Source: an uncultured delta proteobacterium
GTDB taxonomy: Bacteria > Desulfobacterota > Binatia > UBA9968
Direction: 5' to 3'
DNA: 39,218 nucleotides
NCBI GenBank assembly: GCA_963840855.1
Contig: CAWJBB010000093.1
Coordinates: 1-39,218, forward strand
A program made the position numbers and the translations under genes. This document shows, piece by piece, positions 32,611 through 39,218 of this stretch; within the stretch, counting starts at the first letter, position 1; each line of letters starts with the position of its first letter. Below the pieces are notes generated by a model. It saw nothing but the letters and a program-made list of their open reading frames with translations, was not told the DNA's origin and did no database searches.

Positions 32611-33747
32611 CTACCGACTCTTTAACGACTCTGCCCTGGGGAAACCGAAGGCTTCGACCGTCATCTCCACCCAGCGGTCGATGTTTTCATAGACGCTCCA
32701 ATCGCCGACCAGAAGTTTTTTCCCTCTGGTGATTTTTTCCAACTCCGAGCCCGGCGCATAGATGGAAGATTTCAAAGGCTCGTATTTGTCGATGATTTTC
32801 TGTCCGGCTGGGCTCGCCTGAAACTCGAGCCATAGAAGAGCGGCGTGCGGGCGCGGCGCATTGTGAAGAATTCCCTCTTCTTCGCTGAGGCGAACAGGGA
32901 TTGGCTCGACCACCTTGCAGGCGATGGATTTGGTTGGGTCCTTTTCCGCAATCTGCATGCAAGAATGAAAGTTCGCCTGCTGGTGAAGAGCGTATTCTCC
33001 CGCCGCAATCGCTGTCAGCGTTCGCGAGTAGCCGCGGACCCAAATAGGCTCCTGCTCCTTTAGCTTGCGGGCGTAATTCTGCACCCACTCTATCCCAAGG
33101 CCGGCCGCCATGGAGCCGAATCCATGAGGTCGAATGTCCATCATGAATTTCCTTCCCTTAAATTCAAGCCTTAGAAAGTCCTCCCAGGTGTTGGGTACTT
33201 TTCCCGCTGAGATTAGCGTCTTGTTATAAGCGACCGCCTGAATGGCGCTAGCGGGAGCTATAATGTTTCGATTTTTTGGATCGATCATCTTGACGGGAAT
33301 CGCGAGAATGCCCTGCTGAGCCATGCCAAAGATGTCAATTTTCCTTGCGTGCGGAGTGAACTTGCTGAAGAAATCGCGGGGCAGATGAAAAATGTCCCAG
33401 TCCTTTGTTTGCCCGGCTTGCATCTCGAGCAGGAAACGCTGCGCTCCCTCTGTACCTGCAACTTCCTGGCCTTCGACGCTGATGAACGGGTACTTTTCTC
33501 TGAATGCTTTGATAAGCTGGTTTGTCGTTTCGGCATCAAGCGTATTGAGGACGCGCAGTTTTCCTTCACGTTTGGCGCCGGCCAGAATTTCATTGTGACT
33601 GCCGATAAAAGTGTAACCCAGATTTTGAGCGTTGGTCTTGGCCTTTTCCAACTCCGGATTACCAGAGGCAGGGTAGATCGATCGCAAAATTGTCAAAGAC
33701 ACTAATGCAAAGAAAAAAACGGCGCGTCCGAAAAGGCGAGCATTCAT
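32611..33747 (-). CDS. Extracellular solute-binding protein, Fe(III)/thiamine ABC type
   Basis: Signal peptide; AKREGKL, F..KYPFI, YN..L, P..WED.L, GE..L, AP.PHAALL..EF. Confidence 0.85.
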   Translation of the reverse strand: MNARLFGRAVFFFALVSLTILRSIYPASGNPELEKAKTNAQNLGYTFIGSHNEILAGAKREGKLRVLNTLDAETTNQLIKAFREKYPFISVEGQEVAGTEGAQRFLLEMQAGQTKDWDIFHLPRDFFSKFTPHARKIDIFGMAQQGILAIPVKMIDPKNRNIIAPASAIQAVAYNKTLISAGKVPNTWEDFLRLEFKGRKFMMDIRPHGFGSMAAGLGIEWVQNYARKLKEQEPIWVRGYSRTLTAIAAGEYALHQQANFHSCMQIAEKDPTKSIACKVVEPIPVRLSEEEGILHNAPRPHAALLWLEFQASPAGQKIIDKYEPLKSSIYAPGSELEKITRGKKLLVGDWSVYENIDRWVEMTVEAFGFPRAESLKSR

Positions 33748-34053: not shown

Positions 34054-35178
34054 TTATTTCAACATCGCCTGGGGGAGGCCGAAAGCGTTGAGCGCATTCT
34101 TCTCCCACTTGTTGCTGTTCGGCAGAGTGTCCCAGCTATTCACCGCGAGTTTCTTTCCCTGCGTCACTCTAGCCGCTTCGGAGCCGGGCACAAAAACCGA
34201 TGTCTTGGGCTCGAGGCTCTCGATGATCGTCTGCGCCGCCGGCGAGATCTGGAACTCGAGCCACAGTAGCCCCGCGTGCGAATAAGGCGAGACCTGCGCA
34301 ATCGTGGTCATTTCCTGGGTGCGCACCGGCACCGGCTCGATCAGCTTACACTCCAGGGACTTGGAGATGTCCTTTCGTTTTGCCCGGATACACGAGTGAT
34401 AGTAGGACAAATGCAGCATGGACTGTTCGCCGGTCGTGATCGCGGTAATTGCACGGCTGATGCCGCGCACCCAGACCGGGTCCTGATCTTTGATCTTGCG
34501 CGCATAATCCAACATCCATTCTTCGCCGAGCCCGGCCGCCAGGGTTGCCATCCCTGTCGGGCGAACTTCGACCATGAACTTTCGGCCCTTGAATTCGGGC
34601 CTGAGGAAATCTTCCCACCGGTTGGGCACCCTTTCCGGGGCGACCAGGTTCTTGTTATACGAGAGGCTGTAAATCGTGCTGGCAAGACTGATGACGTTGC
34701 GGTTTGTCGGATCAATAATTTCGCCCGGGATCTGGAGCACTCCCTGCTTTGCCATCCCCAAGATATCGAATTTCTTAAGGTGCGGCAGGAAGTCCTGATA
34801 CAATTCCTGCGCGACTTCAAAGACGTCCCAGTTGCTTCTCCCGGCCTGCAGTTCGAGCGCAAACCGCTGCCCTCCTTCAACCCCGGAAATCCTCTCCGCA
34901 CGCGCGTCAATGAACGGGTACTGCTTCATGAAAGCTTTGCGCAGCGCTTCAATATTGTCCGGGTCCATATTACTCAACACCCGCACGCGACCTTCCTCTT
35001 TCGCCTTGGCAACGATCTCGTCCCGGTTGGCATAGAAGACGTACCCTCTGGACTCGGCTTCTTTCTTCGCTTTAGCCAGTTCTGCGCTTGGCGCCGTCGC
35101 CGCTCCCGCGCTATCGGCAAACATCCCTAGGGCTACCGCGCAAAACACAAGCCCGGCCGTCATGAACTTAACCTTCAT
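34054..35178 (-). CDS. Extracellular solute-binding protein, Fe(III)-type (paralog of 32611-33747)
   Basis: GGAGG RBS; WEDFLRPEFKGRKFM and AFG.P shared with the neighbour. Confidence 0.85.
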   Translation of the reverse strand: MKVKFMTAGLVFCAVALGMFADSAGAATAPSAELAKAKKEAESRGYVFYANRDEIVAKAKEEGRVRVLSNMDPDNIEALRKAFMKQYPFIDARAERISGVEGGQRFALELQAGRSNWDVFEVAQELYQDFLPHLKKFDILGMAKQGVLQIPGEIIDPTNRNVISLASTIYSLSYNKNLVAPERVPNRWEDFLRPEFKGRKFMVEVRPTGMATLAAGLGEEWMLDYARKIKDQDPVWVRGISRAITAITTGEQSMLHLSYYHSCIRAKRKDISKSLECKLIEPVPVRTQEMTTIAQVSPYSHAGLLWLEFQISPAAQTIIESLEPKTSVFVPGSEAARVTQGKKLAVNSWDTLPNSNKWEKNALNAFGLPQAMLK

Positions 35179-35443
35179 AAAATAACCTCCTCAGTTATTT
35201 TCTCTGCCTTTTAAAGATTCAACTAATACGCACGTCAGAATGTTTGTTACATTCACTTCCCTGTCCAGTCCATTAGCTTAGCTAATGGGTAGCATTTTGG
35301 TGGCCCTGGACTGCGCCCCTCCCGCTGGAAACTTTTCACCGAGATTTGAGGGGAGTACGATCGGCGGTTTTTGCCTTCTGAATCTTCATCTCGTATTCCT
35401 CCGCGGGTAAGGATCCCAGAGCCGAATGCAATCGTTTCTTGCG

Positions 35444-35471
35444 ATTGAACCGAAGGAGAATTCAATTCAAT
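35444..35471. other. Putative tyrosine-recombinase core site (11-6-11)
   Basis: ATTGAACCGAA GGAGAA TTCAATTCAAT; arms 9/11 complementary. Confidence 0.65.
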
Positions 35472-36542
35472 CCTAGCATCGCGCCGTCGTTATTTGATCA
35501 CCCGGTCCGCTCTCGCCAGCACATTCGGCGTTATCGTCAGTCCGATTTGCTTGGCGGTTTTGAGATTGATCACAAACTCAAACTTCATCGGCTGCTGCAC
35601 CGGCAGGTCAGCGGGCTTGGCGCCTTTGAGAATTTTGTCGACGTAGACAGCGGCGCGATGCCATAAGTCGGCATTGTCCGTTGCATAGGACATTAAGCCG
35701 CCAGCAACTACCCACTCTGAGCGCCAGTACATTGTTGGCAGTCTTGTCTTTGCCGCTAGTTCGAGGACTTGTCTTTGATGGCCGTTTAATAGTTGACCAC
35801 TTCTGAAAAGAATGGCCTGGGCTTTACTCCGTATCACTGCTTCGAATGCCCCTTCCAGTTCATTCGCATCCCAGATTCTTAAAGGTTGAAGCTGCACAGC
35901 TAAGGTCTTTGCCGCAGCCTCTGCTGCCGTATCCGAGCATACAGTACCGCTGCACAGAATGGCCGCTTGTGTGACTTTAGGAAAACCCCCCTTGATTATC
36001 TCCAGCCTTTTCCCAGTTAAATCCGTGGAAAGGGTAGACAGCCCTGTAACATTGCCCCCTGGCCTCGCCAGACTTTCGACAAGTCCGCTCCCGACCGGAT
36101 CACTACCAGCAAAGACAATGGGAATGATCCGAAATGCCTGTTTGGCAGCCCTGGCTGTCGATGTGTTACCGGTAACAATGACGTCGACCTTGAGCGTGGC
36201 TAGTTCCCTTGCAAGCTCAAGCTCCCGGTCCAGCTGGCCTTCCGCGAATCGGTACTCGATATGGATATTCTGCCCCTCGATATAGCCGAGTTTTTCTAGA
36301 CCTTGACGGAAAGAGTCAAGGTTAAATGTTCCAAAGCCCCCCAGGAAAGCTATCCGAGGGACTTTCTTCGGCTCGTGCTGTGCCTCGGTTATGGCCGCAA
36401 CAACGAGCAGTACCACTACAAGCAGGATTGATGGTGTTGCACGTGTCTTCATTGGGCACCTCGATTCGAGCGTTATTTATCACGCCGAACGCAGGGATTT
36501 GTCAAATAAGAACTGCTCGCGGACCCATAGGATTGAACTGAA
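35461..36542. mobile_element. Putative non-autonomous gene cassette carrying one SBP gene, bounded by 15-bp inverted ends
   Basis: TTCAATTCAATCCTA (35461-35475) and TAGGATTGAACTGAA (36528-36542), 14/15 complementary. Confidence 0.6.
35490..36452 (-). CDS. ABC transporter substrate-binding protein (PF04392/DUF534 type)
   Basis: Signal peptide; GYIEGQNI.IEYR.AEG, DPVGSGLVESLARPGGNVTG, KILKGAKPADLPVQQP.KFE.VINLKTAK. Confidence 0.92.
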   Translation of the reverse strand: MKTRATPSILLVVVLLVVAAITEAQHEPKKVPRIAFLGGFGTFNLDSFRQGLEKLGYIEGQNIHIEYRFAEGQLDRELELARELATLKVDVIVTGNTSTARAAKQAFRIIPIVFAGSDPVGSGLVESLARPGGNVTGLSTLSTDLTGKRLEIIKGGFPKVTQAAILCSGTVCSDTAAEAAAKTLAVQLQPLRIWDANELEGAFEAVIRSKAQAILFRSGQLLNGHQRQVLELAAKTRLPTMYWRSEWVVAGGLMSYATDNADLWHRAAVYVDKILKGAKPADLPVQQPMKFEFVINLKTAKQIGLTITPNVLARADRVIK

Positions 36543-36569
36543 CGACGAACGGCCAAACTCACAGCCCGG

Positions 36570-36597
36570 ATTGGGTCGTCGGAGAATTCAATTCAAT
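36570..36597. other. Putative hybrid recombination site (degenerate left arm, intact spacer and right arm)
   Basis: ATTGGGTCGTC GGAGAA TTCAATTCAAT. Confidence 0.6.
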
Positions 36598-37230
36598 TAC
36601 ACGCTAACTAACGCAGAAAAGGGCTGGAGCCGTGCTTGAAAGCATCGGTTCTCTCAACGGGAAGGTTAGGTGGACCGTCTGACGCTTAGGCAGGCAGACT
36701 CAAGGTGCTGTCTATGCTCCCTATCGAGTATTCCAGTCCGCCTTTCGGCGAACTTCGCTCTGGATGATGGGCTTGAACTCAAAAACATGGAGTGTAATTC
36801 CCCCCCTTGCCGTTCTTCGATGGCACTGGATCGAGTCGAGATTCCTGTCGTATAAGCGTCCGTCTACGTTCCATCTGGACCCCTCTCGGGCGGTAAGGGG
36901 CCCGAGAGCGACTGCCAGGACCCGGAAGAATCTCGCTTATTTGGTGTTACGCAAAGCTCGACCTCACCTTTCGCCACACGTTACACATAACGCCACCACC
37001 AAGCACTGGCCTTTTCCTTGATGGCCTTTATATTCCCAAGCGCTCGATGACTTCGGGAGATAATGCATTCGCGGATGCGCCTCCTCCTGCAGGGTTTGAT
37101 GTTAAGCGATGTCTAATTTTTCGGCGGATAACAGATGTTTTGCTTGAAAGAGTATCAGTACTCGAGATGTCCCGGCTTCCGGTGCGCCTTCGCGGACACC
37201 CACCCCGACTACCACTCGGCCAATAAACAC

Positions 37231-37590
37231 CTACGCGCTCACATCGGTAAATAAACCTCCGAAGATTTCTTCACCTTCGACATCTGCTCCATGGCCTCTT
37301 CGGTTACGATTAAACGATATCTGTTCGCTTCTCTTCTGTATCCCTCTCGGGTTCTTTTTTCCACCGCTCCCGTCGAACCGAAGGTGAACCGCACTTGAGT
37401 GACCCAGTCTCCCGTCTGAAAAGGCCCCTGCTAAGTGCGGTGAGCTGTACCGACTTTCACTAGATGTTTGTGACCTCTCAGGACCGCAATCTTCCGGTGC
37501 GCTCGGCCACCCAGGGGAACGTGGAGTCGCAGCTGGCCCGTGGCAACATGTGACGATCGCTAACCAAATATCCGATAGGCGTCGTTTCAT
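37231..37590 (-). other. Possible decayed gene downstream of the recombinase
   Basis: AGAGG RBS + ATG and a signal-peptide-like start; the rest is unrecognisable. Confidence 0.2.
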
Positions 37591-37644
37591 GAATACATCC
37601 TCTTTCTACTCTTCTCTTTTTTTCAAGGGGAGGACAAACTTGTC

Positions 37645-38547
37645 TTAGCCGCCTATTAGCTTCAGACCGTTTACGGCTTTTACCAGTTCTTGGCTGCGCG
37701 AATGGAGATATCGAGCTGTTGTAGCAAGGCTCTTGCGGTTCATTAGACTCTGAATAACTCTGATATTTTCTCCCTGACTTAAAAGCAAGCGTCGCAAAAG
37801 TATGCCGCAAAACGTGTGGTCCCATTCCGCTCGTTCTTATGCGAGATTTCTTAAAATATTTCTTCACCAAATACCAAACCGTCCACGCGAGATTCTTCGA
37901 TTCCGGCAAGAAATAAATAGTGCCCTTGCCCGGCTCCTCTTCCGCCTCTGCTTTAGTACGCCTTGATCTCTATTTTTGCAGAGTCGGCCAGCGGCAGAAT
38001 GTTAATGTCTCCACCTTTGCGATGCAACCGTATCGTCGATTGATGAAGGTCGATGTCGGCTTTGTCCAGCTGCACAATTTCACGCAATCGCGCGCCCGTT
38101 AAGAAAAATGTCGAAATTATTGCCCTGTCCCTGAGTTTTTAATGCATTTCTGATTCATTTCCACGACTTTAATGAGGCGGGCACATTCATCCTGGGACAA
38201 TGCGCGGATTTCACCCATCCTGATTTTTGGAAGGGGGATATCTCAGCGGGATTATCCCTCAGAAGCCCTGCTCGATGAGCATACTTGAAAAACGATCGTA
38301 TCGCTGCCAAGGCCCGTGCACGAGCGGATGGCCCGTTTGGCTTTTGATGACCGACTTCTGAGAGCCACATGAGGTAATCTCGTATGTGGTCGCGGGAAAC
38401 GTCACCTGGTAGGAACCTGCTTCCCAGTCGATGAGCCAGATAATCGTCGAATTTATTGAGATCGTAGCGATACGTATCTATCGTGGATGCACTTGCGTTT
38501 TTCTCCGCGTCGAGATGCTTTAGAAATCGTCTAATGACCTGTCGCAT
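37645..38547 (-). pseudogene. XerC/XerD-like tyrosine recombinase, multiply frameshifted
   Basis: Frames join to: SAM-like N-terminus (FL.HL..EKN.S..T...Y..DL..F; R.LAAIRSFF.Y), RDRAII..F.LTGARL.EI, RKGG, PHVLRHTFAT, IRVIQSLMNRKSLATTARYLH, stop at 37645. GGAGAGGAG RBS before ATG 38547. Confidence 0.88.
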
Positions 38548-38604
38548 AGCAATTCTCCTCTCCATTGGGTTTTGGAGAGCAAGATACGACAGGATCAGAC
38601 CGCT

Positions 38605-38632
38605 AATGTACTGGCGGAGAATTCAGTTCAAT
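38605..38632. other. Putative recombination site about 60 bp upstream of the recombinase (attI-like position)
   Basis: AATGTACTGGC GGAGAA TTCAGTTCAAT; left arm matches ATTGAACTGAA at 7/11. Confidence 0.6.
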
Positions 38633-39000
38633 CACAGGGCTACCGCCTTTTTAGCCAGTCGGTTGGTCGTGAATGGTCGACCCCGCACCGACACGGGATG
38701 ACGTTGCCCGATCGACCCTTCGAGAAACGGACCTCCGGGGCCCGCGCGGAGGAGATCGAGACCGCGGCGCCTCGGTAGCCACTCGGTCGAGGGCGCCACC
38801 GAAAACGTTCATGCCTCAGCGCATCGTTCAAACGCTGCCGGATAGCACGGTCCCTACTCTTTCACGTGGAGCCCTCGGAAAGCGATTTGTGGGCTTAAAA
38901 AGCACATAGTGCCGGGCACCTGCGCCGTGGAGACAGCAAAAATATGTCCGCGACCGTACAGGATCAAATCTACATTCCTGTGGATAAGCGGAGTTTTGGT

Positions 39001-39218
39001 TTACCTTGTCGCCTTGGGGAAGCCAAATGCCTCTACCGCCTTCGCCATCCACTCGCTGGAGTGATGGGAAAGGTCTCAAAGCTGTTGACACAGATTTTCT
39101 TTCGCTCGACCAGCTTGGCCACGACGCTCCCCGGGGAGTAAATGGATCCCTTGAGCGGTTCGTATTTGTCTATAATTTCTTGTCCCTCGGGACTCGCCTC
39201 GTGCTCGAGGAAGAGCAG
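39001..39218 (-). CDS. 3' part of a third Fe(III)-type SBP paralog (runs off the window; frameshift near 39068)
   Basis: LLFLEHEASPEGQEIIDKYEPLKGSIYSPGS...NSFETF-HHSSEWMAKAVEAFGFPKATR*, matching the C-terminus of 32611-33747. Confidence 0.85.

Follow-up and report, generated by a model that had tools for sequence, protein, structure and literature searches.

The DNA analysed here, referred to as the window, is a contig of 39,218 nucleotides (C93; GenBank CAWJBB010000093.1) taken in full from a metagenome-assembled genome (MAG) of an uncultured delta proteobacterium of the Binatia, and it probably contains part of a cassette system that resembles dif modules and has its own dedicated Xer-like tyrosine recombinase. 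In this system, gene modules, most of which encode binding proteins of the PF04392 (ABC_sub_bind) family, would be exchanged at 28-bp sites of two classes, named here A and B. The proposal is drawn from the anatomy and distribution of the sites, their linkage to the recombinase gene and the mosaic flanks around them, as observed in the window, in the 7.10-Mb MAG to which it belongs (G000; 93 contigs, 56% G+C, 94% completeness, 8% contamination), in related genomes and in soil metagenomes. It retains the core of an initial annotation of the window, which had suggested a site-specific system that shuffles gene units around a Xer-like integrase, and which is supported by the geometry of the sites, by breakpoints inside them and by the bracketing of the recombinase gene.

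Two site classes with a common arm

The 17-mer GGAGAATTCARTTCAAT, which had been described as occurring three times in direct orientation, is indeed found on the + strand of the window at positions 35455, 36581 and 38616, and these are its three matches at up to two mismatches, against 0.01 expected from 100 shuffles. The complementary arm ATTGAACYGAA is likewise confirmed at 35444 and 36532; with up to one mismatch it has eight matches in the window against 1.39 expected, four of the eight being the opposite strand of the arms. Between 35444 and 35471 the expected 11-6-11 layout of arm, GGAGAA and arm is present. The accompanying statement that the copies are always intergenic stands only when the broken recombinase gene and its remnants are excluded as genes, and fails otherwise. 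Throughout G000 the 17-mer has 51 exact copies (69 at up to two mismatches), compared with none for the reversed pattern, and most of them cluster in the same orientation on contigs C27, C35, C41, C50, C61, C69 and C85; neighbouring copies in these arrays are often about 1190 bp apart.

These sequences are likely to be parts of double-stranded core sites of a tyrosine recombinase, the 17-mer comprising the 6-bp spacer and the conserved 11-bp arm of an 11-6-11 site. In class A sites, which are 28 bp long, an arm is followed by the spacer GGAGAA and then by TTCAGTTCAAT, and in class B sites, also of 28 bp, ATTGAACTGAA is followed by the spacer CGACGC and then by the inner arm. The two classes have a common arm (ATTGAACTGAA/TTCAGTTCAAT) and unlike spacers (GGAGAA vs CGACGC), so that the single repeated site type originally described is kept as regards its 11-6-11 core and has to be divided in two as regards its spacer. 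In every site the second arm repeats the conserved one more loosely, with up to 10/11 identity to it in class B (9-10/11 to TTCAGTTCAAT in some copies) and up to 11/11 in the short forms of class A. The usual unit consists of a B site, a linker of about 10 nt and an A site. In the first flank alignments this unit looked like one imperfect palindrome of 66-74 nt, and it was the alignment of 72 distinct B-linker-A units from many genomes, in which spacers and arms are invariant, that resolved two complete 28-bp sites. G000 also has five bare 28-bp short forms of class A, including the one at window 35444-35471, and together with the 72 units they make the tyrosine-recombinase geometry of the initial annotation a general property. 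At up to three mismatches G000 contains 84 class A and 84 class B sites, compared with 20 for the two reversed patterns together. Arrays in this genome run in the order B, 47 nt, A, about 1140 nt, B, 47 nt, A, and B, linker, A, gene, B, linker, A is the order found on C41, C50, C61, C69 and C85. Along the arrays A and B alternate with opposite polarity, and therefore the conserved arms face the gene modules and the loose arms face the linker. The inner arm of the A site that adjoins the recombinase gene (AATGTACTGGC) is 7/11 like the conserved arm, read on the other strand.

A role of the motif as the dif site of the host was considered and rejected, the best dif-like sequence of G000, on C46, matching the arm at 6/11 positions. 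The same 24-base dif-like string, with identical flanks, was seen at window 15116 and at C85:14359, which suggests a duplicated segment or two strain variants within the MAG, and a better dif candidate lies on the - strand at C46:43455. A TTGACA-type promoter read by eye between B and the next gene was not called by a consensus scanner, and no promoter is claimed.

Breakpoints inside the sites

The initial annotation had proposed to compare orthologous loci for breakpoints at the sites, and homology among the window, two genomes of the same genus (g1; G002 and G003) and paralogous arrays does break there. Window 37643-38632 is 96% identical to G002:C23, the match stopping at the last base of the 17-mer, and window 38616-39218 is 96% identical to G003:C8, the match beginning at its first base. 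The two matches overlap only in the 17-mer, and the other side of the A site differs in G002 and G003, with G003:C8 carrying a different unit at this place. Similarly, window 36252-36547 is 95% identical to G003:C17, and homology with G003 contigs ends at 36544-36547, within the class B spacer. Five pairs of A sites in G000 have one flank with 88-100% identity over 450-600 nt and another flank with 72-75% identity or no relation at all. The two most informative of these pairs place the change between W and R of GGAGAA-W-TCA-R-TTCAAT. Across 200 distinct A sites, arm position R is associated with the outer flank (p 0.0009, in a set of about 26 tests) and W with neither side. Breakpoints therefore fall inside A sites and at the B spacer. 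In sequencing data, 20 runs from 9 studies contain 0.23-0.30 of the sampled window words, and soil contigs from four runs have joints at 36547, 38616/38633 and 35443/35454, with typical linkers of 20-31 nt between the two sides. These contigs show only that such types of junction exist in nature. Window 36610-37653 is uncovered in four soil runs, from which no inference is drawn.

A Xer-like recombinase gene between A and B sites

The recombinase gene of the window is a pseudogene with 96% DNA identity to an intact 307-aa orthologue in G002. The intact protein scores 201.5 bits against the XerC model (cut-off 335) and 201.4 against the XerD model (cut-off 330), below both cut-offs, and reaches only 65 bits against the IntI model TIGR02249 (cut-off 265), in a match that skips model positions ~182-245. 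Among solved structures E. coli XerD comes closest (E 2e-38), and IntI4 reaches only 5e-6. In a quick tree of 22 tyrosine recombinases, from which five rows with stops had been left out, this family separates from XerC, XerD and IntI as a clade with support 100. By these comparisons the enzyme is Xer-like and not an IntI, which agrees with the identity first assigned to it and supplies the placement in a tree that had been proposed as a check. Canonical XerD (358 bits) and XerC (338 bits) genes, both above their cut-offs, are located elsewhere in G000.

The start codon of this gene, at 38565, is 50 nt away from the A site at 38616, in line with the earlier remark that a site is found just upstream of it. 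In genus g1 the A 17-mer is 48-50 nt before the start in 5/5 recombinase copies (the window, two in G002 and two in G003), where one type of recombinase unit is joined to five different upstream flanks. On the other side, GCGTCG-TTCAGTTCAAT, the form that a B site takes on the gene strand, follows the stop by 6-7 nt in five of the six recombinase copies with downstream sequence, the window copy being the one without it. A scan of soil metagenomes yielded 72 loci with recombinases of 62-92% identity. Where at least 110 nt of upstream sequence was available, A occurs within 140 nt of the gene, about 50 nt before the start, in 27/43 loci; 14 of the other 16 were re-examined: in eight of these A is found at -698 to -852, a divergent open reading frame (ORF) lying between it and the gene, three have too little flank and three have no A site in at least 1479 nt upstream; the last two have degenerate A sites. 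In loci with at least 45 nt downstream, B is found 6-7 nt past the stop in 45/51, and most of the other six have degenerate versions of it. The outer flanks differ among the loci, and many show the 3' end of a PF04392 gene on one side and the usual upstream region of a PF04392 gene on the other. With A upstream and B downstream, the gene therefore sits in the A-B linker, and in intact elements this linker holds a dedicated Xer-like recombinase gene. Hence, the idea of sites around a Xer-like integrase applies to its relatives in most metagenome contexts, whereas the attI-like placement beside the integrase, which had also been suggested, was replaced by a position between an A and a B site. 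The divergent ORF has 148 aa in locus L170 (2355-2801) and 134 aa in locus L175 (2336-2740).

Gene modules between the sites

The units between the sites are mostly genes of about 328 aa of the PF04392 family, with a minority of other units that encode GAF histidine kinases or a subtilase. PF04392 is the only family common near the sites, with 61 ORFs in 32/79 loci. G000 has 74 PF04392 paralogues that aligned over at least 200 aa in tblastn, of which 22 have an A site 14-30 nt past the stop and 20 are preceded by a B arm 79-183 nt from the start. In a quick tree, paralogues that have sites are mixed with those that lack them, with 13 label changes, of which well-supported branches force at least seven. 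The PF04392 module of the window has the conserved arm of B on its 5' side and that of A on its 3' side, the short A site lying 18 nt beyond the stop of the gene (Table 1). The gene that ends at the contig border has a homologue in G003 of the PF13343 type, and the other two binding-protein genes of the window (32611-33747 and 34054-35178) belong to SBP_bac_1/6/8, with no site between them. The proposed partitioning of the substrate-binding protein (SBP) genes by the sites is therefore borne out for the PF04392 genes and not for the two SBP_bac_1/6 genes at 32.6-35.2 kb. All four binding-protein genes between 32.6 and 39.2 kb (32611-33747, 34054-35178, 35490-36452 and 39033-39218) are on the - strand, in keeping with the co-orientation that had been stated.

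Table 1. Sites, genes and other features of the window that are discussed in the text
Feature	Position	Strand	Details
Class A core site, short form	35444-35471	+	ATTGAACCGAA 35444-35454, GGAGAA 35455-35460, TTCAATTCAAT 35461-35471
PF04392 (ABC_sub_bind) binding-protein gene, 320 aa	35490-36452	-	162 bits, E 2e-47
Class B core site	36532-36559	+	ATTGAACTGAA 36532-36542, CGACGA 36543-36548 (consensus CGACGC), degenerate arm 36549-36559
10-nt B-A linker	36560-36569		Place of the recombinase gene in intact elements
Class A core site	36570-36597	+	Degenerate arm ATTGGGTCGTC, GGAGAA 36581-36586, TTCAATTCAAT 36587-36597
attC-like stretch (CGCTAAC ... GTTAGGT), 5 nt past A arm	36603-36672		Weak fold, z -0.19 and -0.37
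Xer-like tyrosine recombinase pseudogene	37643-38565	-	Frame changes and in-frame stops; expected B site after the stop missing
Class A core site adjoining the recombinase gene	38605-38632	+	Inner arm AATGTACTGGC, GGAGAA 38616-38621, TTCAGTTCAAT 38622-38632
3' flank and C-terminal end (39033-39218) of another binding-protein gene	38633-39218	-	96% to G003:C8

Several other elements were seen at or near these genes. At the short A site, a frame on the - strand of window 35335-35443, read by eye, resembles the C-terminal end of an IS3-family transposase (…HSALGSLPAEEYEMKIQKAK…) and begins abruptly at the site; it is probably a remnant of an insertion sequence (IS). Insertion of a pair of genes of the IS91 type, encoding a tyrosine recombinase and a Y2 transposase, occurred at the same point of the B arm in C35:33676-34530 of G000 and in loci L032, L083, L112 and L124, with an identical junction each time and with one of the host genomes labelled Pyrinomonadaceae, and this insertion sequence appears to target these sites. 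The C35 recombinase, considered as a relative of the window's gene since it lies beside a site, was rejected because it belongs to such a pair inserted in the B arm. In C6:465-12525, C30, C32 and C68 of G000, PF04392 paralogues that have no sites are followed by tandem heptamer repeats (GCGTGAG-like or CAGTGAG-like) or by repeats containing GGATTG, and short heptamer runs are also present 3' of two chance-like motif matches on C17 and C80.

Distribution of the sites

The proposed scan of relatives covered 40 genomes, including the unpublished G009, which has no motif match and two IntI fragments. The exact 17-mer was found in 13 of them and the reversed control in none, the positive genomes being 11/24 of the same family, 2/5 of a second family and 0/11 of a third. 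Site-bearing relatives have 1-7 exact copies, compared with the 51 of G000. A 29-30-nt pattern was further found in at least 87 stretches of species genomes. Among the matches listed, most are from MAGs whose record titles read Candidatus Binatia or 'delta proteobacterium', and others are from Pyrinomonadaceae, Blastocatellia, Verrucomicrobiia, a 1.76-Mb Chloroflexia contig and Syntrophobacter(aceae); a match in Mycoplasmopsis is probably due to chance. In all, site-bearing MAGs carry labels of five phyla (Binatia, Acidobacteriota, Verrucomicrobiia, Chloroflexia and Syntrophobacteraceae). The genomes with matches show the same architecture again, together with the same PF04392 3' end, and across phyla the 17-mer is identical while the proteins are 50-70% identical.

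Proposed exchange and relation to known systems

In the model that we propose, the recombinase would pair sites of like spacer, A with A and B with B, and the difference between the two spacers would keep A from recombining with B. An A+A or B+B exchange between neighbouring units would free one circle composed of module, A site, linker and B site, which could insert again at any site of either class. A pair of such exchanges would replace one module by another, as occurs in engineered cassette exchange with heterospecific sites. Binding, catalysis, the circles and the direction of exchange are what we infer from the sequences.

The nearest analogue is the dif-module system of Acinetobacter, not the integron. 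In the study that describes this system, the 28-bp pdif sites have a 6-bp spacer between a XerC arm, which is looser, and a XerD arm, which is conserved. Their polarity alternates to give C and D modules, and exchange is reported only where the spacers of two sites are identical or almost so, the modules being found in many contexts (PMC13141974). The two systems have in common 28-bp sites of 11-6-11 layout, one conserved and one looser arm and the alternating polarity. They differ in that a dedicated Xer-like paralogue lies here within a small module, both arms derive from one 11-mer and only two spacer classes are seen. Moreover, the arrays described here, which are known from sequence, are on long, apparently chromosomal contigs of soil bacteria and mostly carry a single binding-protein family as cargo. 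Like integrons, they are co-oriented arrays of single genes with conserved imperfect palindromes, a linked tyrosine recombinase and a pool of units common to several taxa; the genomes that carry them, and even the arrays themselves, also contain integron integrases and attC-like sites. Unlike integrons, they have a recombinase that fails the IntI model (65 vs 265 bits), duplex-like sites without pairing covariation and two heterospecific sites per junction.

Other known systems share parts of this design. The single-recombinase Xer systems XerH/difH, XerS/difSL and archaeal XerA/dif resolve chromosome dimers at one site per replicon; as in these, one Xer-family enzyme would act here on a site with related arms, but a genome has about 50-80 sites, and XerC and XerD are encoded in addition by genes of their own. 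Engineered recombinase-mediated cassette exchange with heterospecific lox or FRT sites likewise uses the same arms with incompatible spacers to flank a gene unit, whereas the arrangement described here is natural and its exchange is deduced from mosaic flanks only. In the R64 shufflon, inverted sfx sites allow the recombinase Rci to produce inversions within one gene. The conservation of the spacer and one arm, the poor second arm and the recombinase gene adjoining the sites are similar, but same-class sites within an array are here all direct repeats. In the literature open to text search neither 17-mer was found, the 11-mers appeared only in unrelated papers, and none of the titles and abstracts retrieved concerned this system.

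Weighing the alternatives

Several observations weigh against the proposed system. No recombination product, circle or binding has been observed. The recombinase has a much narrower distribution than the sites, a homologue of at least 66% identity being present in 3/13 site-bearing relatives and in 0/5 genomes from other phyla, where the best match is 32-37% identical. G000 has 51 exact sites and only a pseudogene of the recombinase, no intact copy being present in the assembly. No A site was found in the three metagenome loci whose upstream sequence extends to 1479 nt or more, nor beside the recombinase gene of G017, and the linkage among the g1 genomes may go back to one ancestral arrangement. 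The soil-contig joints, which were aligned at 90% likeness, may come from paralogous arrays. Where MAGs are labelled as other phyla, the sites are often on short contigs, and such contigs can be mis-binned; the Chloroflexia case is a contig of 1.76 Mb. Finally, attC-like palindromes keep a constant distance of about 5 nt from the A arm (see below), for which there is no explanation. The system of the window is decayed and looks inactive in G000 because its only recombinase copy is a pseudogene without its B site. The acting enzyme could be the nested recombinase, the host XerC/XerD or IntI.

Recombination of genuine Xer-type sites by the XerC and XerD of the host, with the nested recombinase as merely one cargo module, would fit the many site-bearing genomes without this gene, the XerD and XerC of G000 that exceed their cut-offs (358 and 338 bits) and the 8/11 match of the conserved arm to the Acinetobacter XerD-binding arm TTATGTTAAAT, as it is given in Table 1 of the source (PMC13141974, Table 1). 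We consider this unlikely: the best dif-like sequence of G000 (C46) matches the arm only at 6/11 positions, both arms of A and B copy one and the same 11-mer, as would suit one recombinase better than a pair of XerC and XerD, and A and B bracket the nested gene in most of the 72 independent loci, which is not expected of random cargo. A different possibility is that the unit of A, recombinase and B is itself mobile, with terminal inverted repeats of 11-14 bp, the 66-nt B-linker-A units being miniature and non-autonomous copies that insert after PF04392 genes, which would then be neighbours and not cargo. The conserved arms do form inverted repeats at the outer ends of the unit, gene-bearing and miniature versions both exist, part of the linker resembles by eye the sequence upstream of the recombinase gene, and in genus g1 the same recombinase unit has five different upstream flanks. 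However, the two ends carry unlike 6-bp spacers in inverted order, and a tyrosine recombinase could not join such ends by the usual homology-dependent exchange; in addition, the alignments show no target duplication or flanking direct repeat, no empty site was found, and near-identical gene modules have unrelated neighbours on one side of the A site. Since no pair of modules was traced across both sides, these one-sided pairs do not by themselves demonstrate movement of modules. This second possibility appears quite unlikely to us.

Two further alternatives concern the palindromic nature of the B-linker-A unit. The unit could be an unusual integron attC, recombined by IntI as a single-stranded fold, in which case the arrays would be clusters of attC sites lacking integron integrases (CALINs). 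A true IntI (442 bits) is indeed encoded on another contig of G000, C1, beside which no cassette array was seen; IntI matches with E of at most 1e-60 occur in 12/40 relatives, of which ten reach the family cut-off, including 7/13 site-bearing ones, and in G002 IntI lies 5 kb from two recombinase units. The attC box consensus is RYYYAAC/GTTRRRY, and the outer 7 nt of the arms are one base off it, the arm ending in GTTCAAT with C at an R position. Furthermore, attC-like palindromes begin about 5 nt outside the A arm at 7/51 sites of G000 and 22/105 elsewhere, compared with a chance rate of 0.9%, and the distance from the arm to their first box is almost always 5 nt (range 4-6; e.g., window 36598-36672, L030 and L082); by eye, one of them has what we take to be the normal attC asymmetry and is oriented like the genes. 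One B-linker-A unit also folds at z -4.8, but its inner stem is absent in many other copies, a 1-kb gene can take the place of the loop, and the two variable arm positions are Watson-Crick paired in 41/72 and 39/72 units, no better than chance (Fisher p 1.0, Y vs R). A 3.5-Mb Chloroflexia genome has at least three sites and no IntI match, the adjacent enzyme is without the IntI signature, each half alone is a complete 11-6-11 duplex site, and the apparent exchange zone lies between arm positions W and R or in the spacer, not at G/TT. An attC identity is thus very unlikely, and membership among the integrons was rejected for want of an IntI-type enzyme by the array, of pairing covariation and of GTTRRRY at the crossover. 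The unit could also be a regulatory or RNA-stabilising palindrome, either an operator or of the repetitive extragenic palindromic (REP) type, inherited with a tandemly duplicated gene family whose flanks became mosaic through homologous recombination. Its position 14-30 nt past the PF04392 stop and about 80-115 nt before the next start, the co-orientation of all copies with the genes, its ability to form a hairpin and the presence of other short repeats, some with GGATTG, at the same place in site-less paralogues are all in keeping with this. We regard it as highly improbable, given that site-bearing genes are scattered in the quick paralogue tree (13 changes, at least seven forced), that the 17-mer is identical across phyla in which the proteins are only 50-70% identical, and that the window/G002/G003 junction shares just 17 nt, likely too short for RecA-dependent exchange. 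A recombinase gene is moreover built into the unit, which has no pairing covariation and, in the window and three loci, no match in Rfam. A Y1_Tnp cluster is found in 5/79 loci at a median of 2.1 kb from the site and is never adjacent, unlike what defines REP elements (or REPINs) and their REP-associated tyrosine transposases (RAYTs).

With regard to the integron-like features, it may be added that the IntI of C1 (42288-46880; L021) adjoins three co-oriented tyrosine recombinase genes in an arrangement like that of a recombinase in trio, and that a crude attC finder was dropped since many of its matches were inside ORFs, attC-like stretches being kept only as a class of flank.

Concluding remarks

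The cassette system proposed here, in which a dedicated Xer-like recombinase would exchange gene modules at A and B sites, can be taken one step further. We tentatively suggest that it may be a self-contained third cassette platform beside integrons and dif modules, composed of one Xer-like recombinase and two heterospecific 28-bp sites, that has spread and amplified PF04392 genes in at least five phyla of uncultured soil bacteria. If the system is what it seems, a small recombinase with defined 28-bp sites would be directly open to experiment, and annotators should be aware that the B/A junctions are likely to break short-read assemblies. Soil bacteria would then have a cassette system that is independent of integron integrases and built on duplex sites with a heterospecific pair of spacers, and the idea of dif modules, mainly known from Acinetobacter plasmids, would extend to the chromosomes of uncultured phyla. 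Such a system would also explain why one genome contains about 74 copies of a single binding-protein family, why the units of these paralogues have a near-uniform length of 1.19 kb, and why an identical 17-mer is found in genomes of different phyla.

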